Shown here in pieces: positions 3,721 to 37,500 of a DNA stretch of 64,000 nucleotides. Under the pieces are notes generated by a model. That model saw nothing but the letters and a program-made list of their open reading frames with translations. It was not told where the DNA came from and ran no database searches. Source of the stretch: Selaginella moellendorffii (lineage: Eukaryota; Plantae; Lycopodiophyta). Within the stretch, counting starts at the first letter, position 1; every line of letters begins with the position of its first letter. Both the position numbers and the translations under genes were made by a program. The stretch spans positions 1,255,879 to 1,319,878 of the forward strand of contig NW_003314313.1 of the NCBI RefSeq assembly GCF_000143415.4. The letters are read 5' to 3'.

Positions 3721-3899
3721 TAGTGGTACCACTAATGGCATGAGGGCTCATGCCAATTTTGTGAATGCGAAATTTCACGTGGGTGTCAATAGCATGTTTG
3801 AATAATGGCATGTGGCCTCATGCTATTTGGTATGTTATGATTTAGGCCATTCTCCAATCATTTTTTGTATGGTCTTAACTTCTTTTCTGCACTTTCAGA

Positions 3900-6708: not shown

Positions 6709-6919
6709 TGTGAGACACAAAATCTCTAGGCCCCAAAGTGGAGCTGGAAGGGCGCCACATGGTAGTGGCCGAAGCGAGAGCCAAACGAGCGTAACACGTT
6801 TGGACCAAAAGCTCCGACTTGAAAAGTCAAGAGCGGGAGTGGAACTCCCAACGAAGTGCTCGAGGAACGAGCACGAAGCGAACAAAAGGCGAGGCTCCAA
6901 AAAGGGACCAAAAAGGACC

Positions 6920-7478
6920 CGAAATGGAGTCCGAGATGGAGTCCGAGATGGACCCGAGATGGACCCGAGATGGAGTCCGAGATGGAGACCGAGATGGAGT
7001 CCGAGATGGACCCGAGATGGAGTCCGAGTTGGAGTCCGAAGTGGAGTCCGAGATGGAGTCCGAGATGGAGTCCGAGATGGAGTCCGAGATGGAGTCCGAG
7101 TTGGAGTCCGAGGTGGACCTGAGATGGACCCGAGTTGGAGTCCGAAGTGGAGTCCGAGATGGACCCAAGATGGAGTCCGAGATGGAGTCCGAGGTGGACC
7201 CGAGATGGACCCGAAATGGAGTCCGAGATGGAGTCCGAGATGGACCCGAGATGGAGTCTGAGATGGAGTCCGAGATGGAGTCCAAGATGGACCCGAGATG
7301 GAGTCCGAGATGGAGTCCAAGGTGGACCCGAGATAGACCCGAAATGGAGTCCGAGATGGACCCGAGATGGAGTCCGAGATGGACCCGAGATGGACCCGAG
7401 ATGGAGTCCGAGATGGAGTCCGAGATGGAGTCCGAGATGGAGTCCGAGATGGAGTCCGAAGTCAAGACCGAGACCGGA

Positions 7479-7509
<31 letters not shown>

Positions 7510-7626
7510 TCGGGACCGAGACCGAGACCGAGGCCGAGGCCAAGACCGAGCCCGAGCCCGAGTCCGAGTCCAAATCCGAATCCGAGTCCGAGTCCGAGTC
7601 CGAGTCCGAGTCCGAGTCCGAGTCCG
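6920..7626. repeat. LTR minisatellite: 11-12-bp GAGATGGA(GT/C)CC units followed by 6-bp GAGACC/GAGTCC units
   Basis: Directly visible; present in every family A LTR with variable copy number. Confidence 0.95.
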
Positions 7627-8671
7627 GAGCCTGAGAGGGTGAAAGCCCAAAGCGTTCGTCTCCCAGACCCTAGGGGGTTTGGTGAGCTCCAAAAGTATAG
7701 TAGGGGGAGGACTGCAGTGGAGCCAGTTTGGCCAGGAAAGGCCAGTTTGGCCAGGAAAGGCCAGTTTGGCCAGGAAAGGCCAATTTGGCCCAGGAAGGCC
7801 AGACCCAGTGTTGGGTGATGAACTGACCACTGGGAAGTCCAAGACTAGAGTGAATACGGACCGACAAGCGGGGTAGCTTGGTGAAGTGTTCAAGAGCCGG
7901 CTCTAGTTCCCCCGGGAGATCGACTGGCCGATGCTCCCAATCCAAGTGTGGGTGGCACTACCTACTTGGATACCAGGCATGGCTCAACAGAACCTCGCTC
8001 TAAGCCCATGGCTAGAGCACCTAAAGGCGAAAGGCGGGGAGAGTACCCAGGTGGCTCGCGTAAGGCCACGGTGTTCGGAAATGTTGTCCCAAAGGCCTAG
8101 ACTGTGGAAAGGAAGAGGAGCAGTCCTCTGGGGTAGTGACCAAGGACACAGTCGTGTGGTGAGGAAGTCCCAGAGGACCATGGGACTTAGTGGTCGGGCC
8201 TGTGGGCCTCGATCCAGTGGCAGTGTTGGCAAACACGGCCAAGGGCAGAAAGGGACTTGGTAGGAACTGACAAAGGGACTTTGGGGAAGGCGATTCCCCA
8301 GGTCTGTGGGCATCTTAAGGATGCTAAGGAGTGGATCTAGGATGACCACTCGTGGACAGATGGCCCAGTCTTGGAGAGACGGGATGGTGATGCAAGTGGT
8401 ATTGGACCACTAGTGCAGCAAAGGTGAATGGGCATGGCCTTAGCGTAACGGGCCGAGATGTCAGTGGTACCTTTGGGTGTCGGTCTTGGGACCGGACACG
8501 TGGAGCACTTGGACCAGGTGCAAGTGTTGAGTGGCATGGATGCCATTCTTGGGGCTAGCAAGTCCCAAGTCCTGAATTGGACTGATGGAGGTTGTGAATG
8601 AGACTCCTCCAAGTGGTCAGAGGTGTGGTTAAGTGACTAAAGTAAAATGGAAAAATTAGTCGCTTACAACT

Positions 8672-8683
8672 TGGTATCGGAGC
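8672..8683 (+). promoter_or_regulatory. Primer-binding site, tRNA-iMet type
   Basis: TGGTATCGGAGC lies 3 nt after the LTR end and has one mismatch to canonical TGGTATCAGAGC. Same PBS at 24133-24144(-), 33588, 48925, 58301(-) and 60456. Confidence 0.9.
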
Positions 8684-11600
8684 CGTTCCTTAGTCCGACT
8701 TTTATTGGTGCTCAAGTATATCACCACTAGTGTTGGCATCGGAAGGTCCGAGGAGTGGGCCTATCCTTGAGGAGTAGCAAGTCGGGAAGACATGGCTCTC
8801 CATTACAATTCATGTGTGAACTTGTAGACGAGGTGGTGGATAGAAAAGGGCCAATAATGGAACGACTTTGGGATCTTGGGAACAGTGCAAGGTTTTCCTC
8901 ATTGAGTTGAGGATGTGATCCGGATGAGCATTTGTTTCAGCAAATTGGCTTAGGTTGTTGTGGTAAACAACTAAAGTTGGGATCACGGGAAAGATAGAGA
9001 CTCCAAAACAATAAAGGAGTCACAAGATTATCCTCATATAGTTGAGGTTGGTGCTCATGAATGTGAGACAAAAGGTAATGACCGTGGAAGGTCAAATACA
9101 GAAGAGGACTCAAGTCCTTGAAATGGTGGCCGGGGCTACCTCTAATAAATGCTGGAACAACCCAAGGAGTTGGGGGTGTATTAAGTGGATGAGTTGGTAT
9201 TCTCATCACATGGATAAGTAGTCCTAAGGGGCAAAGGTTGCCCCCAGAGAACAAAATCAAGTTTCGGAGTAACACTTCTGAAAATAGTCCTTTTGAGTAG
9301 GACCGGAATGCAAGATGTGTATTCCAGTGAGCTAGTGCCTCACAAGTAGGACCTTACGGGTCGGTGGATTAACCAAGTCCAAAACTGCTAGACGACTCAA
9401 GTAGAGTCCTAAAAAGGACTGAATGAAGCATTTGGACTGAGGTGCGTTGTACCCCACAAAGGATGGGGGGGGATCATAGGATCCAAGGATGAGAACAGAG
9501 AGTATCTCATCGATGGCAAAATGTGCCATGCTAAAGTTATGGGAGAGGTGTTCCCAGAAGAAAACAACTTTGACATAAAGTTGTGTGTGACCTCTATGGG
9601 GCAGTGCTAACAGATGGTTGGCATGAGAAAGAGCGGTGTTGGTCTTGGCAAAGACTTAGACACGAAGGGAAATGTCATAGAGGTAGGCTCGTGGAGCTGA
9701 TGGTGTGGAGACACCAAATGTGCCAAGGTGTGATACCTTGAGGCTATGTTGGTGGGTTCATGAGAACCCCTTGCCAAAGGAATCCCAATGGAAATGGGAA
9801 TGGCATAGCCTAAGCTGCAGAGCATGCAGTTGGAGTGTGGTGACCCAGATAGTGATGGAGGTGTGAAAGCACCAAGCAATGAGTTGTAGGACTTGACAAC
9901 TATGAGGCAACTAAGCAAGAGGTGCAAAATAACTGATTAAACGGGTAGAAGGTAGCTACCCAAGACTTCTAGTATAGGGAAGTCGAATATACCCTTACGG
10001 GGGATAAGTTTCTTATGTTGCGATATAGTAAGTCAATGTCATAAAAGGAAATACTCATTGTCAAGAAAGCCATCATTGTGACACCCGAACACTCTAGAAC
10101 ACCAGAAGGTGGTGTTTGATATCGCGAGGGCAATGGATAAAGCCTAAGGGACTAAGTCCCTAGCGAATGATGGATAGAAGGTGCTATCCAAATGTCCAAG
10201 GTTGAGAAGACAGGAGAGGACTGTCTACCCAAGTTGGACAAAGCCAAAAATGGAATTTTGGCAAGGCTAGTGATGGGCATGTAAAGGCCCATAAGCAACA
10301 ATGTAACCCCAGTGTGTGGGATTATAAGCTGAGCATACCCGGATTGAGGAACCACTCCCTGGGCTATTGGGTAGGTTCATCCCTAAGAATACTTGCTAAG
10401 GCATGCTAGAAAGTGCAAAGCTATCCTCTTGGTCTGGAGGAGAATGACCGAAGGAAAGGTGTGAAGCCAAAGGCAAGTAGTGTTGGGATGGAACTGAACC
10501 ATAGAAATCAAAGGGCATATCCAACAGTGGTTATGAAAGTTGGGAGTGGAGAATCAAGAGGGTGCTCGAGGATGTTGTTGCTAGCAACCGTGATGCTATG
10601 GAGAGTCTAAAATATGGAATTGTCCATGTTAGACTATATGGCAACTATAAAGCTTGCGAAAGGGGAGGCCTTAGCAAGCTGAGGGACAGAGTCCCTTCAA
10701 AGTTCCCAAAGACGATTCTAGGTGGCGTAGTACCTAGAAAGGCCAAGTGTAAATGGTTCATGGAACGCGCGAAATTAGAGTGGCGCAGCAGAAGCGTGGT
10801 CTTGAAGCTTGCCATGAGGCAAGGTTATCAAGGTTAGGGGAGTAGTTCCCGAGTGTTCAAAGAGAGGGCTTTGAACGAAAGTCGATGGTCAAGGACTTTC
10901 ACGCTTACGCAGGAACCATGTTACAATGGTCGGAGGACTTGCCAAGTGAGATTGGCACGTCGGGGGAACAAAGACCCTAGTTGAAGGTGATATCTTCAAA
11001 AAGGGTGGGCCGGGGGGCCGAGCATGGAGGAGTCCATGCATGATCATAGACATGTCAAGTGAGAGGACTTGGCAGTGTGGAGGAACTAGGTTCCTAAGCT
11101 GTGATCTGTAGCGCGCTTTAAAAATAGGTTGGTGCACCGGCGTGGGGAGTCACGCTAGGCATCTAGTGTGATGCCGTCCGTAGATGCATATACGGAGGTT
11201 GGGTTCGAGTCCCGACCCTCTAGTGCTTGGGTTCGAGTCCCAAATCACTAGGGCGTGGTGATGGTTTGGAATATGAGGACACTCATATTTCGGTGGTCAT
11301 GGACTCTCAGTGGGGAGACTGGTTTGGGCACACCGCCAAGCGAGGGATGCCTCGGAGTCGTGATGCACGGTTAGATTGCTTAGTGTGAAAGCTCAGCATA
11401 TCTAACTTGAACACTTTGGTGCAAGTGGCACCAAGGTCGTGGTGAGTGAGATGGGGACACCTAATCTCAGTTGCTATGAACCCTTGGCCGTAAGGGCTAG
11501 CTTGGGTGCACCGCCAAGTGTGGGGGATGCCCCCGGGGTTATAGTCAACAACTTGGAGGTCTGGAAGACCAAGTACCTCTTGGCAACTCTGTTAAGGTGC

Positions 11601-13510: not shown

Positions 13511-13541
<31 letters not shown>

Positions 13542-14705
13542 TCGGGACCGAGACCGAGACCGAGGCCGAGGCCAAGACCGAGCCCGAGCCCGAGTCCGAG
13601 TCCAAATCCGAATCCGAGTCCGAGTCCGAGTCCGAGTCCGAGTCCGAGTCCGAGTCCGGAGCCTGAGAGGGTGAAAGCCCAAAGCGTTCGTCTCCCAGAC
13701 CCTAGGGGGTTTGGTGAGCTCCAAAAGTATAGTAGGGGGAGGACTGCAGTGGAGCCAGTTTGGCCAGGAAAGGCCAGTTTGGCCAGGAAAGGCCAGTTTG
13801 GCCAGGAAAGGCCAATTTGGCCCAGGAAGGCCAGACCCAGTGTTGGGTGATGAACTGACCACTGGGAAGTCCAAGACTAGAGTGAATACGGACCGACAAG
13901 CGGGGTAGCTTGGTGAAGTGTTCAAGAGCCGGCTCTAGTTCCCCCGGGAGATCGACTGGCCGATGCTCCCAATCCAAGTGTGGGTGGCACTACCTACTTG
14001 GATACCAGGCATGGCTCAACAGAACCTCGCTCTAAGCCCATGGCTAGAGCACCTAAAGGCGAAAGGCGGGGAGAGTACCCAGGTGGCTCGCGTAAGGCCA
14101 CGGTGTTCGGAAATGTTGTCCCAAAGGCCTAGACTGTGGAAAGGAAGAGGAGCAGTCCTCTGGGGTAGTGACCAAGGACACAGTCGTGTGGTGAGGAAGT
14201 CCCAGAGGACCATGGGACTTAGTGGTCGGGCCTGTGGGCCTCGATCCAGTGGCAGTGTTGGCAAACACGGCCAAGGGCAGAAAGGGACTTGGTAGGAACT
14301 GACAAAGGGACTTTGGGGAAGGCGATTCCCCAGGTCTGTGGGCATCTTAAGGATGCTAAGGAGTGGATCTAGGATGACCACTCGTGGACAGATGGCCCAG
14401 TCTTGGAGAGACGGGATGGTGATGCAAGTGGTATTGGACCACTAGTGCAGCAAAGGTGAATGGGCATGGCCTTAGCGTAACGGGCCGAGATGTCAGTGGT
14501 ACCTTTGGGTGTCGGTCTTGGGACCGGACACGTGGAGCACTTGGACCAGGTGCAAGTGTTGAGTGGCATGGATGCCATTCTTGGGGCTAGCAAGTCCCAA
14601 GTCCTGAATTGGACTGATGGAGGTTGTGAATGAGACTCCTCCAAGTGGTCAGAGGTGTGGTTAAGTGACTAAAGTAAAATGGAAAAATTAGTCGCTTACA
14701 GCGCT

Positions 14706-18162: not shown

Positions 18163-20232
18163 AATGTTCGAGGGAATGTCCCTACCCGAAGAAGGGCAGA
18201 GCCAATATGGCCATCAAATCTGGTGAAGTCCAAACTCAGGTATGTGATCCAGTCCCTAACTCAAAGTTACTCATTACACGAGCAACTTTGGTAGAGAGTC
18301 GTTCGCGACATCTACTAGCCCTCCGAGGAAAGCTCGGAGGTAGCTTTATTAAGATCCTTACTGACACGGGTGCTTCGGATAATTTTGTGGCTGCATATAT
18401 AGTCCGGCAAGCAGGACTAACGGTGTAGCAGCTAGGCGAACCAAGGACTATAGAGTTTGTTCAATGTAGCCAAAGCACCGATGAGGTACTTCGACAAGCG
18501 AGAGTCGAAGTGGGGACTTAGAAGGTGGACATGGATTTCACTGTGTTGGACATGGCGGGATTTGACGTAATCTTTGGAATGGATTGGTTCAATCGGTTCG
18601 TGGTAGCCCTGGATGGACAAGGTAGAAACCTTGTGGTACTGGCGAATGCCCAAGGAAGAAGATCTAGGGTGGAGGCCCAGGATCTAAAGGTAGGGCAAAG
18701 CAAGGCCAAAGATTCCTGCTTAAACCTGGTGTCCACGAGAGGACAACTCACTAAAGGAACTAAGTGTAAGCCACAAATTTTTCCTTTCCAATTTGCCAGC
18801 TTACCTCGCCTATCCGACCAACTCTGCCTTGGCTTGTGCTAAGTTCCCTCGCCAAGGTTCTCGCCTATGGTGCCAGCTCCTACTTGGTTTCAGCTACTTA
18901 CTGCACGAGCAACGGAGTGTTAGCCATCCATCTACGGATTCCCAAATCTCTCCCAATCCCCCTCCCCGGGTTAGACTGGACTTAAGGTTCGGCTACACTC
19001 CCCGCAGGCACAAGCAGCCAAGCACACCAAGCCTCCAGATTCCTAACACCCCAAGGTACCACAAGGCTTGATCATGGGACCCTCTAAATCCCAAGCCTTG
19101 GGTGCAGCACTTGCTTCGGGACGTCGGGGCGAAACACCGTGGCCTAACGGCCCGGTATGGGTACCTCTACCCCCCCACTTCCATCCCGAAGGAAAGGCCC
19201 AAGCTCCCGGAAGGGCGAGGACCAATGAGCCACAAGGTACTCAAGTGGGGCACCACTCCACCTGAGCCGGGAGCACCGCAGTCGGTTTCCCTTTCGGGAG
19301 TGGGAGCTGCTCTTGAGCACTTCCTTGGATGGCCCCTCCGGCACCAGCCAAGTCCATGCTCACTCCCACCCAAGGCCCCTCGGTCCCAGTCCCAACCTCA
19401 AGTCGGTTTGGAAGCCCAACTGGAGAGTCCCTTCTAAACTGGTTCCTGGACCTCCCTATCCCTACTATACTTTTGGAACCCCCTGCAGCCCCCCCCCCCC
19501 TGGGAGACGCACGCTTTGGGCTTTCACCCCTTGACCCGTATTAGTATTTGGACTTAGTCTCTGGCTCGATCTCGGACCCGATTTCGGATCCGACTTCGGA
19601 TTTGGTTTCGGACTCGATCTCGGACTCGATCTCGGACCCGATCTCGGATTCGAACTCGGTCCCCGAGTCGGTCTTGGACTCAATTCCGGACCCTATCTCG
19701 AACTCGGTCCTAGAGTCAGTCTTGGACTCGATCCTCGACTTGGTCCCATCCGATGAACTCTTTGTCATTTCGGTCAAGCTTTTGGGGATCCTTTAGCCTA
19801 CGACATCTCGGGGAGTCGGTTCCTTACAACTCCACCACCCATAGAAGAAGTTCGATGCCCACATCGAACGTCTCGTTTTTATCCTACGACTTGTTGACCA
19901 TGTCTCCGGGGGCATCCCCCCACTTAGCGGTGTGCCTAAGTTAGCCTCCCCGGCCAAGAGACCATGACAACGGAATATAGGTGTCCCTATACTCCTCACC
20001 TCACCACGCCCTAGTATGGGGTCGGGACTTGAACCTAGCCTTGCTTTACTAGGGGGTTGGGACTCGAACCCAACCTCCGTAGAATACGTCTACGGATTCG
20101 ACATCCCTGCGGGGAGTCGGGCGTAGTGCCCTACGCCTGGTCGACCTATCCAACCCATGCTAATTAGCTTACCTTTGGCGCGCCTTCGGGTCCCAACATA
20201 TGCCATTAGCTCAACTTTGCAAACTGATATTT

Positions 20233-23200
20233 TTAATTGAATTTTGCATAAGTACATAGAGTTCTGCCTTGCAGAAATTCCTCCACTAGATCTCGAGCGT
20301 TCGCTAGATTCTCCTCCGGTTCCCATGTTGCTTCGCAGTGTGGAAATCCTCTCCACTTCACATGGAACTCTCTCACCTCGCGTCCTTGTCGCTTGCTCTT
20401 GCGCGCATTAAGGATGGCCTCGACTTCGTATTCCTCTTCCCCTTGGATAACCTCAGGTAAAGGTCTCACTTGGTCCTTGCAAAGCGGATCCTCAAAGTAC
20501 GGCTTGAGTAAGTTCACGTGGAACACTGGGTGCATCTTCCCCATCTCTCGAGGAAGTCGGAGTCGGTAAGCCACTTTACCGATTCGTGCCTCAATCTCGT
20601 AAGGCCCCGCGAACCTGCTTAAGGAACTCAAGATCAATTCATTTATAGGAATACATGCATCTTTACCTTTGGGTCAACTTTCGGCTGATCCCACTTGGTA
20701 GTCTGAGGTTCTTGGTGTTCAGCCACACCTTCTCCCCAGCTTGGAACTCTACATCTCGACGCTTCTGGTTCGCGTATTTGGTTTGCCTTTGTTGAGCCCG
20801 TTCCACGGAATCCCTCACTAGATTCCAAATGCTGAGTCTTTCCGCCGTGAATGCCTCCACTGCGGGCAACTCTCCATGATACTCGGCCACGCCGAGTTCC
20901 ACAGGACCTTCAATAGCTCGCCCATTGATGACTTCCCATGGACTCACCCCGATACTCGAATGTGGTGAGTTGTTATAACACATTTCCGCAAGTCCCAAAT
21001 GACTTACCCAATCGGTCTGGTCTCCCGAGACATAGCATCGCAAATAATCCTCCAGCTGCCTATTCACCCTTTCCGTTTGTCCGTCTGTCAAGAAGTGTTA
21101 GGGCCAACAACTTGACTTAATACCCCATACCTGTCTGTGGGTGATAGGCTGTGCTGAATTTCAACTTGGTGCGATACTGTTCCAGGAGAGACCTCCAGAA
21201 CCTACTGGTGAAGATCTTATCTCGATCTGAGATGATCTCTTCTGGTCTTCCCCGCACTCGAACCACTTGTTCGAAGAACAGCTTCGCCACACCTTCCGCA
21301 TCCACTTCCGTTGTGGTGGGTATGAAATGTGCCATTTTCGAAAATCGGTCCACCACCACGAATATCGCATCAAACCCCTCGCTTGGGGGGAGTCCCGTGA
21401 TGAAGTCTATCGTAAGACATTTCCACGGGCGATCTGGAATGGGGATGCTTTGCAACAAGCCCCCACTAGCCTTAGTCACGGCTTTTACCTGCTGACATGT
21501 TGGGCATGTCTTTACATAGTCTTGGACGTCCTTAGCCATATCTGGCCAATGGTACTTCCTTTTGAGTAAGCCCATTGTCTTGGGCACTCCGCCGTGTCCC
21601 GCAAGAGGTCCGTCATGACACTCTTCTAAGGCCACCTTCCTTAGTTCCCCTTCTGGAACATACACCCTCGTTTGCTTGTAATAGATGAGTCCGTTGTGTT
21701 CCGCATAGCCCGTTTTCTCTTCCGTTGGCAGCTCACCTCTCTGGTGAGCTTCCCGCGCCTCTAGATTCCTCAGCAACACTTCTTGTGCTAGACCATCGTT
21801 CTCATATGCTGTCCGCACATCGTCCCAGAAGGTTGCTGTTGCGCTGGATATTGCCAACCTCAAGCTCGCTTTTCGACTTAGCGCATCCGCCACGATGTTG
21901 CTCTTCCCAGGCTTGTACAGAATCTCGCAATCAAACTCAGCCAAGGCATTGGCCCACCGACCTTGTTTCCCTCTTAGGTCGGGCTGTGACAAGAAGTGTT
22001 TCGTTGCCACATTGTCCGTGTAAACCTTGAAGTGTCTCCCAAGGTAGTGTCGCCACTCCTTGAGTGCCTTGACCACCGCAAACAATTCCTTCTCGTGGGC
22101 AGGCCACTTCCGTTGAGCCTTGTCCAGCTTCTTCAAGAAGAACGCTACCGGATGGTTGTCCTGCTTCAAAACTGCACCCAACGCAAAGTCCGAAGCATCC
22201 GTTTCTACCTCAAAGTCCTTACCAAAGTCTGGTAATGCCAATACGGGAGCCTTCCTCAACTTCCCTTTGAGGTGGACGAATGCCGCCTCGCATTCTGCTG
22301 TCCATACCATCTTCCCTTTTCCTGTTTGGTCCGTTAAGGGCAGGGCTACTCTCGAATAGTGTCTGATAAACTTTCGATAGTAGTTGCATAGCCCCAGGAA
22401 CGCCCTCAACTCATGTACATTCGATGGTCGCTCCCATTCCTGGATCGCTTGGACCTTCTCCGGGTCCACCTTGAGCCCGTCCTGGCCCACCACATGCCCG
22501 AGAAACTTTACCTCTTGTTGAGCAAAGTCACATTTGCTCTCTTTAGCATACAGTTTGTGTTCCCTTAGTTTCTCAAACACCTTCGCCAAGTGTTCGGCAT
22601 GCTCCTCTAGCGTCTCGCTATAGATCAGGATGTCGTCAATATAGACGACCACGAAGTGATCCAGATAGGGTACAAAGATGTGGTTCATCAACGCCGAAAA
22701 CATTGCCGGCGCATTGCACAGCCCAAAGGGCATCACTAGAAACTCAAAGCTCCCATACCTTGTTCGACAGGTTGTCTTCTCGACATCTTCCTTGGCTACC
22801 CTGATCTGGTAGTATCCTGACCTTAGGTCAATCCTCGAGAAGTATTTTGCCTTTCCCAACCTATCGAACAGGTCCTCAATCCTTGGCAAAGGGTACTTGT
22901 TCTTCTTGGTATACTTGTTGAGCAACCGGTAATCTATGCACATGCGCATAGATCCATCTTTCTTTTTCACAAATAATACCGGCGCCCCATACGGCGACTT
23001 GCTCAACCTAACATACCCTTTGTCCACCAACTCCTCTAGTTGGCACTTGAGCTCCTTGAGTTCCTTTTCGTTCAAACGATAGGGTGGACGAACCACCGCC
23101 TCAGTGCCCTCGACCAGCTCAATCTTATGTTCTATCGGTCGTGCGGGGGGCAACCCCGCCGGTAGCTCCTCCGGCATGGTATCCTGGAATTGGTCCAACA

Positions 23201-23631
23201 CTCGCTGGATCACTAAAGGCACTTCTTCCGTTCTTGTCTTTTTGTCACTCTTCACCGAGAGTAAGCACAAAAAGGCTGCCTTAGTTCCTTTAGTGAGTTG
23301 TCCTCTCGTGGACACCAGGTTTAAGCAGGATTCTTTGGCCTTGCTTTGCCCTACCTTTAGATCCTGGGCTTCCACCCTAGATCTTCTTCCTTGGGCATTC
23401 GCCAGTACCACAAGGTTTCTACCTTGACCATGCAGGGCTACCACGAATCGATTGAACCAGTCCATTCCGAAGATCACGTCAAATCCCGCCATGTCCAACA
23501 CGGTGAAATCCATGTCCACCTTCCAAGTCCCCACTTCGACTCTCGCTTGTCGAAGTACCTCATCGGTGCTTTGGCTACCTTGAACAAACTCTATAGTCCT
23601 TGGTTCGCCTAGCCGCTGCACCGTTAGTCCT
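20233..23631 (-). CDS. pol: Pol: partial protease, RT, RNase H, integrase, chromodomain; three exons (23631-21131, 21084-20667, 20614-20233)
   Basis: YIDD; ETDASD; HHCC (ECHD..GH..CPTC); IDF..SDRD..TERVN; GPY; chromodomain [17 protein letters not shown]. The three ORFs join in frame only after removing two GT-AG segments. Confidence 0.9.
20615..20666 (-). other. 52-nt spliceosomal-type intron before the integrase GPY motif
   Basis: GTAAAG...TTAAGCAG; removal restores [12 protein letters not shown]. Confidence 0.85.
21085..21130 (-). other. 46-nt spliceosomal-type intron in the integrase core
   Basis: GTATGG...CTAAC...TTGACAG; removal restores [15 protein letters not shown]. Confidence 0.85.
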
Positions 23632-24088
23632 CCATATCGTAAAACCAATCCTCCACCACCTTATAGTCGTTCACTCCCTTGAAGACCGGTGGGGGCTTCG
23701 GTTTGTACTTGGGAACTGCCTGAGGGACTGATTTCACTTCAGTCTGTTCGACCTTGTCTGGTTTTGCCTCAGTCCCTACCGAAGGGTCTGCACCTTCTGC
23801 GCTGCCAGCATCCGCAGTCTTTCGCTTTTTCTTCCGCTTCTCGTCACGCTTTAGCTTGCGTACGAGAGTCTCTAGCAGGGCATTGGTCTGTGCCAATTGT
23901 CCTTCTAGAACGTCCAATCGATCCTTGGACGACCGAACCTCACCACCGGACTCCTGTTTGGAAGTTGCCTCACTGGAGTCCTCCTCATGCAACGATTCCT
24001 CATCCATAGCCTCCTGTTCGACCGGAGGCTCCAACTCTGGAGGAGGTTCCGTCTCCGCCTGGGTTCGCTTACGTCCTGCCCTTGCCAT
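23624..24088 (-). pseudogene. gag: Gag N-terminus, truncated by an internal deletion
   Basis: The ATG lies ~45 nt after the PBS. The ORF ends PKPPPVFKG...WFYDMED and then fuses to mid-protease sequence. Confidence 0.8.
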
Positions 24089-25609
24089 CTCCCAGCAATC
24101 CGCCTCTATCCTTCGCTAGAACTGAGGAAGAGGCTCCGATACCAAATTGTAAGCCACAAATTTTTCCTTTCCAATTTGCCAGCTTACCTCGCCTATCCGA
24201 CCAACTCTGCCTTGGCTTGTGCTAAGTTCCCTCGCCAAGGTTCTCGCCTATGGTGCCAGCTCCTACTTGGTTTCAGCTACTTACTGCACAAGCAACGGAG
24301 TGTTAGCCATCCATCTACGGATTCCCAAATCTCTCCCAATCCCCCTCCCCGGGTTAGACTGGACTTAAGGTTCGGCTACACTCCCCGCAGGCACAAGCAG
24401 CCAAGCACACCAAGCCTCCAGATTCCTAACACCCCAAGGTACCACAAGGCTTGATCATGGGACCCTCTAAATCCCAAGCCTTGGGTGCAGCACTTGCTTC
24501 GGGACGTCGGGGCGAAACACCGTGGCCTAACGACCCGGTATGGGTACCTCTACCCCCCCACTTCCATCCCGAAGGAAAGGCCCAAGCTCCCGGAAGGGCG
24601 AGGACCAATGAGCCACAAGGTACTCAAGTGGGGCACCACTCCACCTGAGCCGGGAGCACCGCAGTCGGTTTCCCTTTCGGGAGTGGGAGCTGCTCTTGAG
24701 CACTTCCTTGGATGGCCCCTCCGGCACCAGCCAAGTCCATGCTCACTCCCACCCAAGGCCCCTCGGTCCCAGTCCCAACCTCAAGTCGGTTTGGAAGCCC
24801 AACTGGAGAGTCCCTTCTAAACTGGTTCCTGGACCTCCCTATCCCTACTATACTTTTGGAACCCCCTGCAGCCCCCCCCCCCCCTGGGAGACGCACGCTT
24901 TGGGCTTTCACCCCTTGACCCATATTAGTATTTAGACTTAGTCTCTGGCTCGATCTCGGACCCGATTTCGGATCCGACTTCGGATTTGGTTTCGGACTCG
25001 ATCTCGGACTCGATCTCGGACCCGATCTCGGATTCGAACTCGGTCCCCGAGTCGGTCTTGGACTCGATTCCGAACCCTATCTCGAACTCGGTCCTAGAGT
25101 CGGTCTTGGACTCGATCCTCGACTTGGTCCCATCCGATGAACTCTTTGTCATTTCGGTCAAGCTTTTGGGGATCCTTTAGCCTACGACATCTCGGGGAGT
25201 CGGTTCCTTACACTAAGGTAGCATTTTTGTGCTTACTCTCGGTGAAGAGTGACAAAAAGACAGGAACGGAAGAAGTACCTTTAGTGATCCAGCGGGTGTT
25301 GGATCAATTCCAGGATACCATGCCGGAAGAGTTACCGGCAGGGTTGCCCCCCTCACGACCGATAGAACATAAGATTGAGCTGGTCGAGGGTGCTGAGGTG
25401 GTGGTTTGTCCCCCCTATCGTTTGAATGAAAAAGAACTCAAGGAGCTCAAGTGCCAACTAGAGGAGTTGGTGGACAAAGGGTATGTTAGGTTAAGCAAGT
25501 CGCCGTATGGGGCGCCGGTGTTATTTGTGAAAAAGAAAGATGGATCTATGCGCATGTGCATAGACTACCGATTGCTCAATAAGTATACAAAGAAGAACAA
25601 GTACCCTTT

Positions 25610-25771
25610 TGTAGTGCATGTGATCATGGGATAAGATTTGGATATACTGTCACCGTGGATCCTTGGAATCTTGGGAGATAAATGGGGATAAAATAGCCAC
25701 TAAAGGCTCTCTCATTAAGCAATTGCCCCTTTTCCAGTTGGCTTAAGGGGAGAGAGATAAGGTGCGCTACA
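25610..25771 (+). mobile_element. 162-bp solo LTR of TRIM family C inserted in B2 RT
   Basis: TGTAG...CTACA with TSD CCTTT at 25605-25609 and 25772-25776; splits KYP|LPRI; reverse-complement homologue of 39969-40130. Confidence 0.92.
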
Positions 25772-27331
25772 CCTTTGCCAAGGATTGAGGGCTTGTTCGA
25801 TAGGTTGGGAAAGGCAAAATACTTCTCGAGGATTGACCTAAGGTCAGGATACTACTAGATCAGGGTAGCCAAGGAAGATGTCGAGAAGACAACCTGTCGA
25901 ATGAGGTATGGGAGCTTTGAGTTTCTGGTGATGCCCTTCGGGCTATGTAATGCGCCGGCAACGTTTTCGGTGCTGATGAACCACATCTTTGTACCCTATT
26001 TGGATCACTTCATGGTCATCTATATCGACGACATCCTGATCTATAGAGAGACGCTAGAGGAGCATGCTGAACACTTGGTGAAGGTGTTTGAGAAACTAAA
26101 GGAACACAAACTATATGCCTAAAAGAGCAAATGTGACTTTGCTCAACAAGAGGTAAAGTTTCTCGAGCATGTGATGGGCCAGGACGGGCTCAAGGTGGAA
26201 CCAGAGAAGGTCCAAGCGATCTAGGAATGGGAGCGACCATTGAATGTACATGAGTTGAGGGCATTCTTGGGGCTATACAACTACGACCGAAATTTTATCA
26301 GACACTATTTGAGAGTAGCCCTGCCCTTAACGGACCAAACAGGAAAAGGGAAGATGGTATGGACAGCGAAATGCGAGGCAGCATTTGTCCACCTCAAAGG
26401 GAAGTTGAGGAAGGCTCCCATGTTGGCATTACCAGACTTTGGTAAGGACTTTGAGGTAGAAACAGATGCTTCAGACTTTGCGGTTTACCGGTTTTAGAAC
26501 CCTAAACCCTAAACCCTAAACCCGAGTTTGATTGCAAGGTTCTGTACAAGCCTGGGAAGAGCAACATTGTGGCAGATGCGCTAAGTTGAAAAGCGAGCTT
26601 GAAGTTAGCAATATCCAGCGTGACAAAAACCTTTTGGGATGATGTGCGGACAGCATATGAGAACGATGGTCTAGAACATGAAGTGTTGCTGAGGAATCTA
26701 GAGGCACGAGAAGCTCACTAGAGAGGTGAGCTGCCAACGGAAGAGAAAATGAGCTATGTGAAACGCAATGGACTTATCTATTACAAGCAAACAAGGGTGT
26801 ACGTTCCAGAAGGGGAACTAAGGACGGTAGCCTTAGAAGAGTGTCATGATGGACCTTTTGCGGGACACGGCGGAGTGCCCAAGACGATGGGCTTACTCAA
26901 GAGGAAGTATCACTGGCCAGATATGGCTAAGGATGTCCAAGACTATGTAAAGACAAGTCCAACATGTCAGCAGGTAAAAGCCGTGACAAAGGCTAGTGGG
27001 GGCTTGTTGCAAAGCATCCCAATTCCAAATCGTCCGTGGAAATGTCTTACGATGGACTTCATCACGGGACTCCCCCCAAGTGAGGGGTTTGATGCGATAT
27101 TTGTGGTGGTGGACCGATTTTTGAAGATGGCACATTTCATACCCACCACAACGGAAGTGGATGCGGAAGGTGTGGCAAAGCTGTTCTTCGAACAAGTGGT
27201 TCGAGTGCGGGGAAGGCCAGAAGAGATTATCTCAGATCGAGATAAGATCTTCACTAGTAGGTTTTGGAGAACTCTCCTAGAACAGTATTGCACTAAGTTG
27301 AAATTCAGCACAACCTACCACCCACAGACAG

Positions 27332-27378
27332 GTATAGGGTATTAAGTCAAGTTGGATGGCACTAACACTTCTTGACAG
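27332..27378 (+). other. Integrase intron 1, B2 copy (47 nt)
   Basis: GTATAG...CTAAC...TTGACAG at the same codon position as in B1. Confidence 0.85.
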
Positions 27379-27796
27379 ACGGATAAACAGAAAGGGTGAA
27401 TAGGCAATTGGAGGATTATTTGCGATGCTATGTCTCGGGAGACTAGACCGATTGGGTAAGTCATTTGGGACTTGCGGAAATGTGTTATAACAACTCACCA
27501 CATTCGAGTATCGGGGTGAGTCCATGGGAAGTCATCAATGGGCGAGCTATTGAATGTCCTGTGGAACTCGGCGTGGCCAAGTATCATGGAGAGTTACCCG
27601 CAGTGGAGGCATTCACGGTGGAAAGACTTTACATCTGGAATCTAGTGAGGGATTCCTTGGAACGAGCTCAACAAAGGCAAACCAAGTACGCGAACCAGAA
27701 GCATTGGGATGTAGAGTTCCAAGCTGGGGAGAAGGTGTGGCTGAACACCAAGAACCTTAGGCTACCAAGTGGGATCAGCCGAAAGTTGACCCAAAG

Positions 27797-27848
27797 GTAA
27801 AAATGCATGTATTCCTATAAATGAAGTGATCTTGAGTTCCTTAAGCAG
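27797..27848 (+). other. Integrase intron 2, B2 copy (52 nt)
   Basis: GTAAAA...TTAAGCAG at the same position as in B1. Confidence 0.85.
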
Positions 27849-29636
27849 GTTCGTGGGGCCTTACGAGATTGAGGCACGAATCGGTAAGTGGCTTACTGTC
27901 TCCGACTTCCTCGAGAGATGGGGAAGATGCACCCAGTGTTCCATGTGAACTTACTCAAGCCGTACTTTGAGGATCCACTTCACAAGGACCAAGTAAGACC
28001 TTTACCTGAGGTTATCCAAGGGGAAGAGGAATACGAAGTCGAGGCCATCCTCAATGCGCGCAAGAGCAAGCGACAAGGATGCGAGGTGAGAGAGTTCCAT
28101 GTGAAGTGGAAAGGATTTCCACACTGCAAAGCAATATGGGAACCGGAGGAGAACCTAGCGAACGCGCAAGATCTAGTGGGGGAATTTCTGCAAGGCAAAA
28201 CTCTATGTACTTATGCAAAGTTCAATTAAAATATCAATTTGTGAAGTTGAGTAATGGCATATGTTGGGACCCGAAGGCGCGCCGAAGGTAAGCTAATTAG
28301 CATGGGTTGGCTAGGTCGACCAGGCGTAGGGCACTACGCCCGACTCCCCACGGGGATTAGGGTTTAGGGTTTATCCATAGACGTATTCTACGGAGGTTGG
28401 GTTCGAGTCCCAACCCCCTAGTAAAGCAAGGCTGGGTTCAAGTCCCGACCCCATACTAGGGCGTGGTGAGGTGAGGGGTATAGGGACATGTATATTCCGT
28501 TGTTATGGGCTCTTGGCCGGGGAGGCTAACTTAGGAACACCGCTAAGTGGGGGGATGCCCTTGGAGACATGGTGACCAAGTCGTAGGATAAAAAGAGACG
28601 TTCAATGTGGGCATCGAACTTCTTCTATGGGTGGTGGAGTTGTAAGGAACCGACTCCCCGAGATGCTGTAGGCTAAAGGATCCCCAAAAGCATGACCGAA
28701 ATGACAAAGAGTTCATCGGATGGGACCGAGTCGAAGATCGAGTCCAAGACCGACTCTGAGACCGAGTTCGAGATAGAGTCCGGGATCGAGTCCGAGGCTG
28801 AATCGGAGACCGAGTTCAAGACCGAGTTCGAGACCGAGCTCGAGACAGAGTCCGAGATCCAAATCGGGTCTGAGACCGAGTCCGAGGTTGACTCCGAAGT
28901 CGAGTCCGAGATCGGGTCCGAGATCGAGCCCGAGATCGAGTCTGAGACCGAGTCCGAAGTCAGGTCCAAGATCGAGTCCGAGATCGAATCTGAGGGTTCC
29001 AAAAGTATAGTAGGGATAGTGAGGTCTAGGAACCAGTCTTGAAGGAACTCTCCAGTGGTGCTTCCAAACTGACTTGAGGTTGAGATTGGGGTCGAGGGTC
29101 CTTGGGTGGGAGTGAGCATGGGCTTGGGTGTTGCCGGAGGGGCCACCCAGGGAAGTGCTCAAGAGCAGCTCCCACTCTCGAAAGGGAAACCGACTGCAGT
29201 GCTCCCGGCTCATGTGGAGTGGTGCCCCACTTGAGTACCTTGTGGCTCATTGGTCCTTGCCCTTCCCAAGGGCTTGGGCCTTCCCTTCGGGATGGAAGTG
29301 GGGGGGTAGAGGTACCTATACCGGGCTGTGTTTCGCCCCGATGTCCCGGCGCAAGTTCTGCACCTAAGGCTTGGGATTTAGAGGGTCCCATGATCAAGTC
29401 TTGTTGTACCAAGGGGTGTTAGGAACCTGGAGGCTTGGTGTGCTTGGCTGCTTGTGCCTGTGGGGAGTGTAGCCGAACCTTAAGTCCAGTCTAACCCGGG
29501 GACGGGGATTGGGATGGATTTGGGTTGGTACAATAGGCGAGAACCTTGGCGAGGGAACTTAGCACAAGCCAAGGCAGTGTTGGTCAGATAGACGAGGTAA
29601 GCTGGCAAATTGGAAAGGAAAAATTTGTGGCTTACA

Positions 29637-30329
29637 GAACCAATCTTGAAGGAACTCTTCAGTGGTGCTTCCAAACTGGCTTGAGGTTGAGATTAGGGCT
29701 AAGGGGCCTTAGCTGGGAGTGAGCATGGACTTGAGTGGTGCCAGAGGGGCCACCCAAGGAAGTGCTCAAGAGCAGCTCCCACTCCCGAAAGGGAAACTAA
29801 TTGCAGTTCTCCCGGCTCATGTGGAGTGGTGCCCCATTTGAGTACCTTGTGACTCATTGGTCCTTGCCCTTCCTAGGGGCTTGTGTCTTCCCTTTGGGAT
29901 AGAAGTGGCGTAGAGGTACCCATACCGGGCCGTTAGGCCACGGTGTTTTACCCCGGCGTCCCGAAGCAAGTGTTGCACTTAAGGCTTGGGATTTATAGGG
30001 TCCCATGATCAAGTCTTGTTGTACCAAGGGATGTTAGGAACCTAGAGGCCTTGTGTGCTTGGCTACTTGTGCTTGCGGCTAGTGTAGTCGAACCTTAAAT
30101 CCAGTCTAACCCAGGGAGGGGGATTGGGAGAGATTTGGGAATCCATGGATGGATGGATGGCTAATGCTCCGTTGCTCGTGTAGTGAGTAGCTGAAACTAA
30201 GTAGGACCAAGTAGGAGCTGGTACAATAGGTGGGAACCTTGGCGAGGGAACTTAGCAAAAGCCAAGGTAGTGTCAGTCGGATAGATGAGGTAAGCTGGCA
30301 AATTGGAAAGGAAAAATTTATGGCTTACA
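29637..30329 (+). mobile_element. 3' portion of an older family B LTR (probable insertion target of B2)
   Basis: Repeats the LTR sequence from about 29030 to the end motif ggcttaca, and is more diverged. Confidence 0.8.
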
Positions 30330-31575: not shown

Positions 31576-34500
31576 TGTGAGACACAAAATCCCTAGGCCC
31601 CAAAGTGGAGCTGGAAAGGGTGCCACGTGGTAGTGGCTGAAGCGAAAGCCAAACGAGCGTGACCCGTTTGGACTAAAAGCTCCGACTTGGAAGGTCGAGA
31701 GCGGGAGTGGAACTCCCAACAAAGTGCTTGAGGAACAAGCACAAAGCGAGCAATAAGCGAGGCTCCAAAAAGGGACCCAAAAGGACCAACACATGACACG
31801 TGGAAGTGTCCGAGATGGGGTCCGAGATGGACCAAGACGGAGTCTGAGATGGAGTCCGAGGTGGAGTCCGAGATGGAGTCCGAGATGGAGTCCAAAGTGG
31901 AGTCCGAGATGGAGTCCAAGATGGAGTTCGAGATGGACCGAGATGGAGTCCAAGATGGAGTCCGAAGTGGAGTCCGAGATGGAGTCCGAAGTGGAGTCCG
32001 AGATGGAGTCCGAGATGGAGTCCGAGATGGAGTCCGAAGTGGAGTCTGAGATGGAGTCCGAAGTGGAGTCCGAGATGGAGTCCGAGATGGAGTCCGAAGT
32101 GGAGTCCGAGATGGAGTCCGAAGTGGAGTCCAAGATGGAGTTCGAGATGGACCGAGATGGAGTCCGAGATGGAGTCCGAAGTGGAGTCTGAGATGGAGTC
32201 CGAAGTGGAGTCCGAGATGGAGTCCGAGATGGAGTCCGAGATGGAGTCCGAGATGGAGTCCGAAGTGGAGTCCGAGATGGAGTCCGAGATGGACCGAGAC
32301 GGAGTCCGAGATGGAGTCCAAGATGGACCGAGATTGAGTCCGAGATGGAGTCCGAGGTGGAGTCCGAGATGGAGTCCGAGATGGAGTCCGAAGTGGAGTC
32401 CGAGATGGAGTCCGAGATGGACCGAGATGGAGTCTGAGATGGACCCGAGATGGAGTCTGAGAAGGACCCGAGATGGAGTCTGAGGTCGAGACTGAGACCG
32501 GGACCGAGACCGAGACCGAGACAGAGACCGACACCGAGACCAAGACCGGGACCGAGACCGAGACCGAGACCGAGCCGGAGGCCGAGACCGAGCCCGAGTC
32601 CAAGTCCGAGTCCGAGTCCGAGTCCGAGTCCGAGTCCGAGTTCGAGTCCGAGTTTGAGTCTGAGAGGGTGAAAGCCCAAAGCGTTCGTCTCCCAGACCCT
32701 GGGGGGTTTGGTGAGCTCCAAAAGTATAGTAAGGGGAAGGACTGCAGTGGAGCCAGTTTGGCCCAGGAAGGCCAGACCCAGTGTTGGGTGATGAACTGAC
32801 CACTGGGAAGTTCAAGACTAGAGTGAATACGGACCGACAAGCGGGGTAGCTTGGTGAAGTGTTCAAGAGCCGGCTCTAGTTCCCCCGGGAGATTGACTGG
32901 CCGATGCTCCCAGTCCAAGTGTGGGTGGCACTACCTACTTGGATACCAGGCGTGGCTCAATGAAACCTCGCTCTAAGCATGGGCTTAGAGCACCTAAAGG
33001 CGAAAGGTGGGGAGAGTACCCAGATGGCTCGCGTAAGGCCATGGTGTTCCGAAATGTTATCCCAAAGGCCCAGACTGTGGAAAGGAAGAGGAGTAGTCCT
33101 CTGGGGTAGTGACCAAGGACACAGTCGTGTGGTGAGGAAGTCCCAGAGGACCGTGGGACTTAGTGGTCGGGCCTGTGGGCCTCGATCCAGTGGTAGTGTT
33201 GGTGAACATGACCATGGATAGTAAAGGGACTTGGTGGGGACCAGAAAAGGGACATTGGGGGAAGGCTATTCGCCATGTCTGTCAGTCTTTGAGGGACGGG
33301 ACTGTGATGGAGGTGGTGTCAGACCACCGGTGTGACCAAGGTGAATGGGCATGGCCTTAGTGTAACGGGCTGATATGTTGGTGGTACCTTGGAGTGTCGG
33401 TCATGGGATCGGTCACGTGGAGCACTTGGACCAAGTGCAAAGGTTGGGTGGCGGGGATGCCATTCTCGGGGCTAGCAAGCCCAAGTTTGAAATAGGACTT
33501 ATGGAGGTTGTGAGTGAGACTCCTCCAATTGGTCAGAGGTGTGGTTAAGTGACTAAAGTAGAATGGAAAAATTAGTCACTTACAACTTGGTATCGGAGCT
33601 GTTCCTTAGTCCGACTTTTATTAGTGCTCAAGTATATCACCATTGATGTTGGCATTGGAAGGTCCTAGGAGTGGGCCTATCCTTGAGGAGTAGCATGTCG
33701 AGAGGACATGGCTCTCCACTCAAGTTCATGCGTGAACTTGGGCACGATGTGGTGGATAAAAATGGGCCAATAATAAAACGACTTTGGGATCTTGGGAACA
33801 GTATAAGGTTTCCTCAGAGAGCTGAGGATGTGATCCAGATGAGCGTTTGACGCAACAAACGGGCTAACATAGTTGTGGTAAACAACTATAATTGGGATCA
33901 TGGGAAAGATGTAGACTCCAAAATAATAAATGAGTCACAAGATTACCGTCATATAGTTGAGGCTAGTGCTCATAACTTTGAGACTGGAATTGATGACCAT
34001 GGGAGGTCAAATATAGGAGAGGACACAAGTCCTCGAAATGGTAGCTGAGGTTACCCTTGATAAATACTGGAACAACCCAAGGAGTTAGGGATGTACTTAG
34101 AGGATGAGTTGGTATTCTCATCACATGGACAAGTGGTCCTAAGAGGCAAAAGGTTGCCCCAAGAGAACAAATCAAGTGTCGGAGTAACACTTGCAAAGAT
34201 GGTCCTTGTGAGTAGGACCTGAATACAAGAAGTTGTATTCCAGTGAGCTGGCACCTCAAAGGTAAGACCTCATGGGTCGTCGGATGACAAAGTCCAAAAA
34301 GCTGGATGACTCCAATAGAGTCAAGGAATAATCCTAAAAGATTGATGGAAGCATTTGGACTGAGGTGTGTGGTACCCCACGAAGGATGGGGAGGATCATA
34401 GGATCCAAGGATGAGAACAGAGGGTATCTCATCGATGGCAAAATGTGCCATGCTAAAGTCGTGGGAAGGGTGTTCCCAAAAGAAAAAAAAACTTTGAAAC

Positions 34501-37500
34501 AAAGTTGTGTGTGACCTCTATGGTGCAGTGCTAACGGATGGTTGGCATGAGAAAGAGTGGTATTAGTCCTTGCAAAGACTTAGACACAAAGAAGAAGTGT
34601 CATAGAGGTAGACTCGTGGAGCCGATGGTGTGGAGACACCAAATGTGCCAAGGTGTGATACCTTAAGGCTATGTTGGTGGGTTCATGAGAACCCCTTGCC
34701 AAAGGAATCCCAATGGAAATGGGAATGGCATAGCCTAAGTTGCAGAGCATGCAGTTGGAGTGTGGTGACCCAGATAATGATGGAGATGTGGAAGCACCAG
34801 CAATGAGTTGTAGGACTTGACAACTATGAGGCAACTAAGCAAGAGGTACAAAATAATTAGTTAAACGGGTAGAAGGTAGCTATCCAAGCCTTGTTAATTG
34901 CATAAGGAAGTTGGATATACCCTTACGGGGGATAAGTTGCTTATATTGCCATATAGTAAGTCAATGTCATGAAAGGAAATACTCATTGTCAAGGAAGCCG
35001 TCATTGGGACACCCAAACACTTTAGAACACCAGGAGGTGGTGTTTGATGTAGCGAGGGCAATAGATAAGGCCCAAGGGACTAAGTCCCTAGCGAATGATG
35101 GATAGAAGGTGCTATCTAAATGTCCAAAGTGGCGGAGATGGGAGAAGACTGTCTACCCGAATTGGACAAAGCCAAAAATGGAATTTTGGGAAAGCTAGTG
35201 ATGGGCATGTAAGGGCCCATAAGCAACAACGTTAATCCCGGTGTGTGGGATTATAAGGTGATCATACCTGGATTGAGGAACCACTCCCTAAGCTGTTGGG
35301 TAGGTTCATCCCCAAGAATACTTGCTAAGGCATGGTAGAAAGTGCAAAGCTATCCTCCTAGTTTGGAGGTGAATAACCGAAGGAAAGGTGTGAAGCCAAA
35401 AACAAGAAGTAAGGGCGTAGAGCCGAACCATAGGAATCGAAGGGCATAACCAAGGTTGGTTATGCCAGCTGGGAGTGGAGAATCAAGTGGGGGCTCGAGG
35501 GTGTTGCCGCTAGCAACTGTGATCCCATGGAGAGTCTAAAATATGGAATTGTCCATGTTAGACTATATGGTAATTGGAAAGCTTACAAATAGGGAGGCCT
35601 TAGCAAGCTAAAGGACAGAGTTCCTTTAAGGTTCCCAAAGATGATTCTAGGTAGCTTAGTACCTAGAAAGGCCAAGTGTAAATGGTTCAAGGAATGCGCG
35701 AAATTAGAGTGGCGCAGCAGAAGCATGGTCTTGAAACTTGCCATGAGGCAAGGCTATCAAGGTTAGGGAAGTAGTTCCCGAGTGTTCAAAGAGAGGGCTT
35801 TGAATGAAAGTCGATGGTCAAGGACTTCCACGCTTATGCAGGAACCATGTTACAGTGGCCGGAAGACTTGCCAAGTGAGATTGGCAAGTCGGGGGAACAA
35901 ATACCCTAGTTGAAGGTGATAACTTCAAAAAGGGTGGGCCATGGGGCCAAGCATGGAGGAGTCCATGCATGATCACAGACTTGTCAAGTGAAAGGACTTG
36001 GCAGTGTGGAGGAACTAGGTTCCTAAGCTGTGATCTGTAGCGCGCTTTAAGTATAAGTTGGTGCACCGGCGTGATGAGTCATGCCAGGCATCTAGGGTGA
36101 TGCCATCTGTAGATGCATATACGGAGGTTGGGTTCGAGTCCCGACCCTCTAGTGCTTGGGTTCGAGTCCCAAATCGCTAGGGCGTGGTGATGGTTTGGAA
36201 TATGAGGGCACTCATATTTCGGTGGTCATGGACTCTCAATGAGGAGATTGGCTTGGGCACACCGCCAAGCGGGGGATGCCCCAGAGTCGTGATACACGGT
36301 TAGATTGCTTAGAGTGAAAGCTCGGCATATCTAACTTGAACACTTTAGTGCAAAAGGCACCAAGGATGTGGTGAATGAGAAGGGGACACCCAGTCTTAGT
36401 TGCTATAGATCCTTGGCCGGAAGGGCTAGCTTGGGCGCACTGCCAAGTGTGGGGGATGCCCCCGGGGTCATAGTCAACAACTTAGTAAGGTCTGGAAGAT
36501 CTAATTTCTATTGGTAGACCTATTAAGGGGTCAAGATGAGATCACTAGGTGATCTTATGGCTAAACAAGGACAAGGTCTTTATTTGGGTTAAGGAATATG
36601 ATTCCTAGTTCAAAGTGTTGATTTGAACTATTGATAAAGGTGTGGCTTGGTCAAGGTCACTAAGTGGGAAGGACACCTAAGGGAAATGAACTACTACAAT
36701 ACAATGGTATTATGAGTTTAAGAAAATAGTCTCCAGAGAAAGGCCTATGGGTGGGTCACAAGGTTGGGCTAGGAAGAGAGCCTAGAACAGTTGGGGAGAC
36801 TTACTAGGGGTGAACACCCTAGTCTGGGCAAAGCAGATCCTTTGCTATGGAACCAAAAGAATACCTCAAGGAGGGAGGTAATGATCCTATGTTGCTTGGT
36901 GCAACAATCCAAGGATAGGAGCAAAAGATGAGTGCCCAAGATAGGGCCGTGGAACCCATTGGAAAGAATCCAAGAGGCAAAGTTAGCCAAGGAACACTAA
37001 TGTGGTTGATGCTAACGGATAGCGGAAAAAGAAGTGGACTTCCAAGGATGGATTCCCAAGTGCTCCAAGTTGGCAAAGGAAAGGCTCCAAGTGAGGGAGC
37101 AACTAAGTAGCCAAAAGATAGGGCCGTGGACAACCCTAGCACAAATAATGATAAATGGAACGTAATGCCAATGGGGGCACAAAAATAGAAAAGAGGATGA
37201 GGGTGCCCTCGAGTAGAGAACTTCCTAGGAGGGGAAGTGGAGTTGCACAAAATGTGCAAGGCAAGGTGTTGGAGACACCTAGGAAATTGACTTCAAGAAG
37301 TCAAAAGTAAACGTTCCAAAGTGCAAAGGTAGATCAATGGAATCTGTGACTACTCAAGAATGAGTAGTGGAATTGAGTTAGAGAGGGTGTCTCTAACGGG
37401 TTTAGCGAGAACTAAACCAATAAACGGAAAGAACCACCACAAGTGGTCCAATCAGTCTCTAAGTTGGAGAGACTATCCTCCTTAGAGGATGGACAAGGCA

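Follow-up and report, generated by a model that had tools for sequence, protein, structure and literature searches.

When an RNA is reverse-transcribed, any introns that it carries usually disappear immediately, an effect on which the classic retrotransposition assay is built. LTR elements of plants have no introns as a rule, with Ogre and EVADE given as the exceptions in the accessible part of a 2025 review (PMC12786077). Ogre is a plant Ty3/gypsy element that keeps an intron in its DNA and requires splicing for the later Pol domains; it has a single intron, between protease and reverse transcriptase, and belongs to a non-chromovirus lineage (PMC6317226, PMC12786077). The descriptions of Ogre available in these two papers mention neither a splice across the primer binding site (PBS) nor an intron inside a domain. 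In the Ty1/copia elements EVD and BARE1, as far as the available text of the reports goes, an alternative intron over the protease ends Gag just past the junction, and the RNA pools for translation and for replication are separate; Gag-Pol is made there from unspliced RNA (PMC5580714, PMC3735527). A survey, again from the accessible text, found no such conserved splice among Arabidopsis Ty3/gypsy elements (PMC5580714 / PMC3735527).

Foamy viruses, as portrayed in the accessible parts of two papers, have their major splice donor ahead of the PBS, in the R region of the 5' LTR (PMC5035957), and their Pol comes from a spliced message distinct from the genome RNA. Their introns are kilobases long and skip gag, and their Gag is read from the genome RNA (PMC5035957, PMC7828637). 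The SM1-Galahad family of Selaginella moellendorffii, according to the available part of its description, has LTRs longer than 1 kb with a poly-G tract, TG..CA ends, a Met-tRNA PBS, a main frame that ends after the integrase core, two short downstream frames of 316 and 309 bp, the second with a chromodomain, and many deleted copies; its describers found no intact one (PMC3350952). The pieces are treated there as separate frames, the strings 'intron' and 'splic' are absent from the text available, and the sister family SM2-Galahad has one unbroken frame (PMC3350952). Our literature search, with most subscription papers and the repeat databases outside it, found neither introns in an SM1-Galahad-type family nor a PBS-removing intron in any LTR retrotransposon. 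The accessible portions of three further papers held nothing on a PBS-spanning splice (PMC2864245, PMC10309623, PMC2832683).

The element described here lies in a 64,000-nt stretch of DNA, which was analysed as a whole and is called the window. It shares with SM1-Galahad the long LTRs with a poly-G tract, the TG..CA ends, the Met-type PBS, the main frame ending after the integrase core, the deleted copies and the two short frames, which measure 318 and 309 bp here (without stop), with the chromodomain in the second. The inferred host agrees as well: a Selaginella moellendorffii protein shares 94% identity with a protein encoded in the window. The element thus fits SM1-Galahad, matched by published description and not by sequence. 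The published separate frames differ from what we found, since the pieces are exons here: a real spliced intron crosses the PBS in a family already known but misread, which also has spliced integrase introns. Unlike Ogre, the element has a chromodomain and a protease-RT-RNase H-integrase core in one open frame (Pfam). As in foamy viruses, the donor lies in the 5' LTR, upstream of the PBS; in contrast to them, a 66-nt intron drops just the LTR end and the PBS before gag, and more small introns lie in the integrase. A gag-skipping Pol message of the foamy type does not fit this layout, in which the acceptor precedes the gag ATG and gag and protease form one frame in the older copy described below. 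No env-like family was found among the scanned frames of the window (Pfam). Foamy viruses follow the same logic with a different anatomy.

The element and its two copies in the window

The younger copy, B2 (25212-18765), lies on the minus strand, as do all B2 features given below. It was inserted in reverse into B1 (18167-30329; plus strand), an older copy of its own family, within the protease-RT stretch, and the 3' end of B1 carries a tandem partial LTR. The 5' LTR of B2 (24148..25212) is 1065 bp long, has TG..CA ends and contains a TATA-like word near 24846-24856. The 1064-bp 3' LTR (18765..19828) differs from it by seven mismatches and one gap and carries a twin donor at 18804. A polypurine tract (19829..19840) and a 5-bp target-site duplication (18760..18764, second copy 25213-25217) were also found. 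The domain order protease-RT-RNase H-integrase with a C-terminal chromodomain (Pfam), together with the LTRs, PBS, polypurine tract and 5-bp duplication, is that of a Ty3/gypsy chromovirus. Judged by the 99.2% likeness of its LTRs and its intact target duplication, B2 is a young copy.

Both copies are broken. B2 retains only the N-terminal part of gag (23624..24088); a deletion near 23626-23630 took the C-terminal remainder of gag along with the active site of the protease. Its pol exon (21131..23625) encodes the C-part of the protease, reverse transcriptase, RNase H, the integrase zinc finger and the first part of the integrase core (Pfam, tblastn). The last exon (20233..20614) encodes an SH3-like domain and the chromodomain, through the stop (Pfam). 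Protein searches gave best matches of about 50% for pol and of 49% for the middle integrase exon (among 150 matches listed); they returned no match for gag among longer proteins and no near-identical or spliced protein product of the family. A further 66-nt candidate intron, GTAAGC..CAG, was noticed from the letters of the 3' UTR (20107..20172). One contig from an RNA-type run (X3, 20119-20377) crosses its donor unspliced, and the spliced form was not seen.

The intron across the primer binding site

The original prediction was of a 66-nt intron spanning the LTR end and the PBS, and a check of the sequence found each predicted part in its place. The intron (24122..24187, GT..AG) opens with the final 40 nt of the 5' LTR, continues through a spacer of 3 nt and the PBS, and closes with the acceptor tract. 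Its first base, the G of the donor GAG/GTAAGC (24182..24187), is 24187 and lies within the LTR, 40 nt from the LTR end (24148). A branch-like CTTAC (24149..24153), with the same letters as the LTR attachment end, has its A 28 nt before the acceptor and may serve as the branch point. The PBS (24133..24144), which we take to be of the Met-tRNA type, is followed by a pyrimidine tract and acceptor (24122..24132, CTCTTCCTCAG) that ends at 24122, 11 nt after the PBS. The PBS type agrees with the available description of SM1-Galahad (PMC3350952). The first ATG of gag is located at 24088, 33 nt past the acceptor. The intron lies wholly in the 5' UTR and contains no ATG; five short upstream frames all stop before it, and the sequence of the junction indicated that splicing creates no start codon.

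To gauge chance, 11,814 random anchors were placed in the window, and 25 of them had a donor matching at least 7 of 9 consensus positions within 80 nt upstream, paired with an acceptor of at least 9 pyrimidines in 11 within 33 nt downstream; the thresholds were derived from the PBS-intron site, and anchors near that site were included. Among distant relatives with a Met PBS (15 in all; 36-63% protein likeness, and no stand-in for the sister family SM2-Galahad), none had a donor and an acceptor of such strength together. In one intron-less relative (L001:190-260), a donor matching 7 of 9 positions precedes the PBS by 52 nt, and no acceptor follows the PBS.

Eight of 23 sequencing runs were examined: raw RNA reads of X15, X16 and X17 (about 12% of each) and the contig sets X1, X2, X3, X4 and X9. 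X1 and X2 come from study P1, X3 from P2 and X4 from P3; we took these four to be RNA, a guess supported by their canonical skips. The kind of X9 is not recorded, and its 379 aligned pieces behave as DNA. Contigs of X1 (24121 to 24188) and X2 (24121 to 18805) skipped exactly the 66 bases with canonical ends, indicating that the predicted junction is used; the LTR side of the X2 contig was placed on 18805, which is the 3'-LTR twin of 24188. The spliced form was the only form assembled in X1 and X2. Over the seven RNA-type runs, the intron was skipped in two (one study), kept in one (X3, contig 24017-24822) and uncovered in four (X4 and X15-X17). In the DNA-like X9, a piece (23976-24177) ran unspliced through the acceptor and the PBS, the PBS joint was absent, and pieces crossed each site of the PBS and integrase introns unspliced, with none of their joints. 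A GT..AG segment that is precisely absent from the X1 and X2 contigs and present in X9 and X3 is what a spliceosomal (U2-type) intron would give.

The junction was found in assembled contigs; the raw reads of X15-X17 gave next to no cover there or in the coding region. These reads cover a piece of the LTR (24323-24679) with fixed foreign sequence on both sides, which is an LTR fragment in a host transcript from another locus. Compared with B2, the spliced contigs showed about 5% divergence (31 of 609 bases in record 3 of X1), with the same variants in X1 and X2, and contigs of X1, X2 and X9 continued into gag sequence that B2 lacks; thus, the spliced RNA comes from another family member. RNA contigs of two studies ended at 24822-24825 (24822 in X3, 24825 in X1), a weak hint of the transcription start. 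The X3 contig that keeps the PBS looks like genome-type RNA, because it ends at this likely start site. At the other end, the contigs with the splice in X1 and X2, both from one study, stopped at 20276-20286, some 45 nt short of the stop codon of the chromodomain. The spliced message may terminate early, upstream of the polypurine tract, although contigs do not reveal where an RNA ends.

The donor hexamer was present in all four family B LTR ends (24187, 18804, 29597 and 30290), as had been predicted. The LTR begins with TGTAAG and finishes with CTTACA, so that CTTAC is the integrase attachment end, and the donor GTAAGC and the GCTTAC of the LTR end are perfectly complementary. The two are paired in a predicted U5-terminal hairpin (24149..24187), in which the donor forms the 5' arm and faces the attachment end and the branch-like CTTAC (-12.8 kcal/mol, z -3.7, for a segment picked after the hairpin had been noticed). 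Folding of three distinct family B LTR ends gave z values of -3.7, -4.2 and -2.3 (40-nt segments chosen after the fact), and the 181-nt region folded whole was not significant (z -1.2). No notable structure was found by folding in the integrase introns or the 3'-UTR candidate intron. An LTR-end hairpin was also found in three of five folded intron-less relatives (L003, L014 and L052). In the non-coding family A of the window, the LTR end, PBS and acceptor-like tract (8622..8692, plus strand) keep the hairpin with two or three compensatory pairs, counted by eye, and GTTAAG stands at the donor position. Because the donor is the complement of the attachment end in the hairpin, its conservation proves little alone: the hexamer is there in every end, as predicted, but does not provide independent evidence of selection for splicing. 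The predicted hairpin offers a possible origin for the donor. It is also a possible splicing switch, since its stem would hide both the donor and the branch site. The hairpin does not account for the strong acceptor after the PBS.

Integrase introns and a putative Gag-ending splice

Integrase intron 1 (21085..21130; 46 nt, phase 1) contains a stop codon and lies just before the third catalytic residue. It is followed by the 418-nt middle integrase exon (20667..21084) and by intron 2 (20615..20666; 52 nt, phase 2). Both window copies retain both introns with their splice ends; in B1 they occupy 27332..27378 (47 nt) and 27797..27848 (52 nt) on the plus strand. The exons are open in the phases set by the junctions, their lengths sum to whole codons to give one open frame, and the exon pieces are colinear with intron-less relatives (tblastn). 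The site of intron 1 was uninterrupted in all 33 distant relatives with a recognisable motif there (80 loci, 47 of them unscorable).

Intron 1 was skipped in four of the seven RNA-type runs, from three studies: in contigs of X1, X2 and X4 and in one stranded raw read of X15, whose orientation is that of the sense strand of the element. It was kept in X3 and in the DNA-like X9 and uncovered in X16 and X17. Intron 2 was skipped in three of the seven runs, from two studies (X1, X2 and X4, with a short side of 28 nt in X4), and was kept in X9. These results indicated that the integrase introns, on which the original prediction had relied, are real and spliced. Unspliced RNA cannot give active integrase, because intron 1 brings a stop before the third catalytic residue. 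Since the integrase introns need splicing yet persist in DNA, message and template must be different molecules, regardless of the PBS intron. In all three RNA-type runs that covered both, the PBS intron and integrase intron 1 were in the same state (spliced in X1 and X2, kept in X3), which fits coupling and is not phasing.

Direct repeats of 5 nt and 4 nt flank the ends of intron 1 (21085-21130) and intron 2 (20615-20666), respectively, possibly a trace of gain by staggered-break repair or insertion. Short telomere-like TTTAGGG runs at deletion or replacement points in retroelement copies (26485-26525, about 28350-28375, and 50105) look as if they were break-repair filler.

In X1, X2 and X3, loose contig ends link the gag terminus with sequence immediately beyond the active site of the protease. 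By eye, these ends would define an alternative intron of about 157 nt (18240..18396 in B1, plus strand). In B1 the skip starts at a CAG/GTATGT donor, and Gag would stop two codons later, much like the Gag-ending splice of EVD and BARE1. The splice remains putative, because it was read by eye and B1 has no AG at the acceptor; the joint was not called by the aligner. In X3, the Gag-ending junction was accompanied only by the contig that keeps the PBS, so some spliced RNA may keep the PBS; that contig may also derive from another copy or from DNA. We considered the B2 deletion as a retro-copied form of this splice and rejected it: its end lies about 20 nt from the putative acceptor, and its start is far upstream, at a short microhomology.

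A proposed division of the RNA between translation and replication

An RNA without a PBS cannot be tRNA-primed, as is established for retroelements. We propose, with a probability of about 0.6, that splicing of the PBS intron divides the RNA of this family into messages that serve only for protein and unspliced genome RNA, which is the sole primed template, and that new copies inherit the introns for this reason. Transcription would begin near 24825, and most of the RNA would go to the spliceosome and lose the PBS intron. A further splice over the protease active site would yield a Gag-only message. RNA that retains the protease segment and has both integrase introns removed would encode the full Gag-Pol of about 1557 aa, a length calculated from the published frame of 1295 aa and 266 further codons (SM2-Galahad, the sister without introns, has 1577). 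Where the LTR-end hairpin hides donor and branch site, the RNA would stay unspliced and keep its PBS and attachment end. This RNA, encoding an integrase cut before the third catalytic residue, would be packaged and primed, and each new copy would inherit the introns, with integrase acting always in trans. In this scheme new copies inherit every intron because only RNA that has escaped splicing keeps the PBS and is primed.

Co-packaged spliced RNA without a PBS could still donate intron-less sequence by template switching. Rare intron-less DNA copies are possible, because contigs drop rare variants. The original prediction held that only unspliced RNA can be primed and that the integrase introns persist for that reason. 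It stands in that the intron is used, PBS-less RNA is unprimable and DNA contigs keep the introns, and its further steps, that every integrase-spliced molecule is PBS-less and that PBS loss is the cause of the persistence, are more tentative. It had also held that PBS splicing forces the proteins to act in trans; this applies to full-length integrase, but the integrase introns alone require it and the PBS intron is unneeded.

A stronger form of the proposal is tentative, and we would sooner doubt it than accept it. The element would carry a gene-like set of four or five small introns, message and genome would be fully separate, and the hairpin, by its folding, would send each RNA to one of two fates, PBS-less message or template. 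Translated RNA would then never be copied, pol introns would accumulate at no inheritance cost, and the donor-less non-coding relatives would make all of their RNA as template.

The PBS splice might be real and a by-product of the LTR end, whose hairpin arm must read GTAAG, a splice donor; its use would be partial and independent of the other splices, and the integrase introns would persist through another packaging or export signal that selects the unspliced RNA. The exact complementarity of donor and LTR end speaks for this explanation, as do family A, which keeps the hairpin through compensatory pairs yet lost the donor, the hairpins of intron-less relatives, and the spliced Gag junction of X3 with its PBS-keeping contig. 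It leaves unexplained why a strong acceptor stands between the PBS and the gag ATG, and it sits poorly with the spliced form being the only one assembled in X1 and X2 and with the missing donor-acceptor pair in all 15 distant relatives. We regard it as unlikely. A role in expression, with PBS loss secondary, is improbable as the main explanation: the intron would aid export or translation, or its U1-binding donor would block polyadenylation in the 5' LTR. Its position entirely in the 5' UTR, with the start codon unchanged, is consistent with such a role; in the accessible parts of the papers, foamy viruses depend on their donor to express Gag (PMC5035957), and early termination in EVD is blocked by U1 (PMC5580714). 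An expression role gives no reason for bracketing exactly the PBS and does not account for the inheritance of the integrase introns. It and PBS removal are not mutually exclusive.

The spliced RNA could also come from one dead or host-tamed copy, in which the introns are old lesions that the host splices, while the family moves with the proteins of its intron-less sister. This fits the 5% divergence of the spliced contigs from B2, with variants shared by X1 and X2, the damage in both B1 and B2, and the accessible report that no intact SM1-Galahad was found (PMC3350952). We consider it very improbable, since both integrase introns are shared by B1, B2 and the DNA contigs and, to judge from the published layout, belong to the family consensus as well; in addition, splicing restores one exact frame through the chromodomain, and B2 appears young.

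If the proposed division of RNA by PBS splicing holds, it bears on several questions. A family with spliced integrase introns needs a way to stop its messages from being copied, and a mini-intron over the primer site is a direct candidate. The element is a natural system for asking how one element splits its RNA between translation and replication. Elements annotated as having a broken integrase can be spliced and active. The arm of the LTR-end hairpin would be a ready-made donor, suggesting a route by which such a switch might arise repeatedly.

Family A is a non-coding LTR family with LTRs of about 2 kb and a 4-kb interior (6709-14700, 31576-39482, 47336-51979 and 52455-64000 of the window). 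It has the PBS, polypurine tract, LTR end and 3'-UTR blocks in common with family B, and five PBS-bearing copies in the window against one of family B. A tblastn comparison with two relatives found no pol remnant in it, and it has no sense frame of more than 110 codons. The original prediction also had action in trans favour parasitic non-coding families, which is a conjecture: family A is non-coding, the more abundant of the two here and devoid of the donor, but non-autonomous LTR families are common in intron-less systems as well. Two other frames were noticed in the window. The window protein mentioned above is a single-exon frame of 613 codons (43203-45044), and the Selaginella protein that it matches is a hypothetical one labelled kinase-domain; the frame had no Pfam match and no other homolog. 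A 944-codon frame with DUF7869 (3879-6713), interrupted by a family A insertion, is possibly part of another mobile element.
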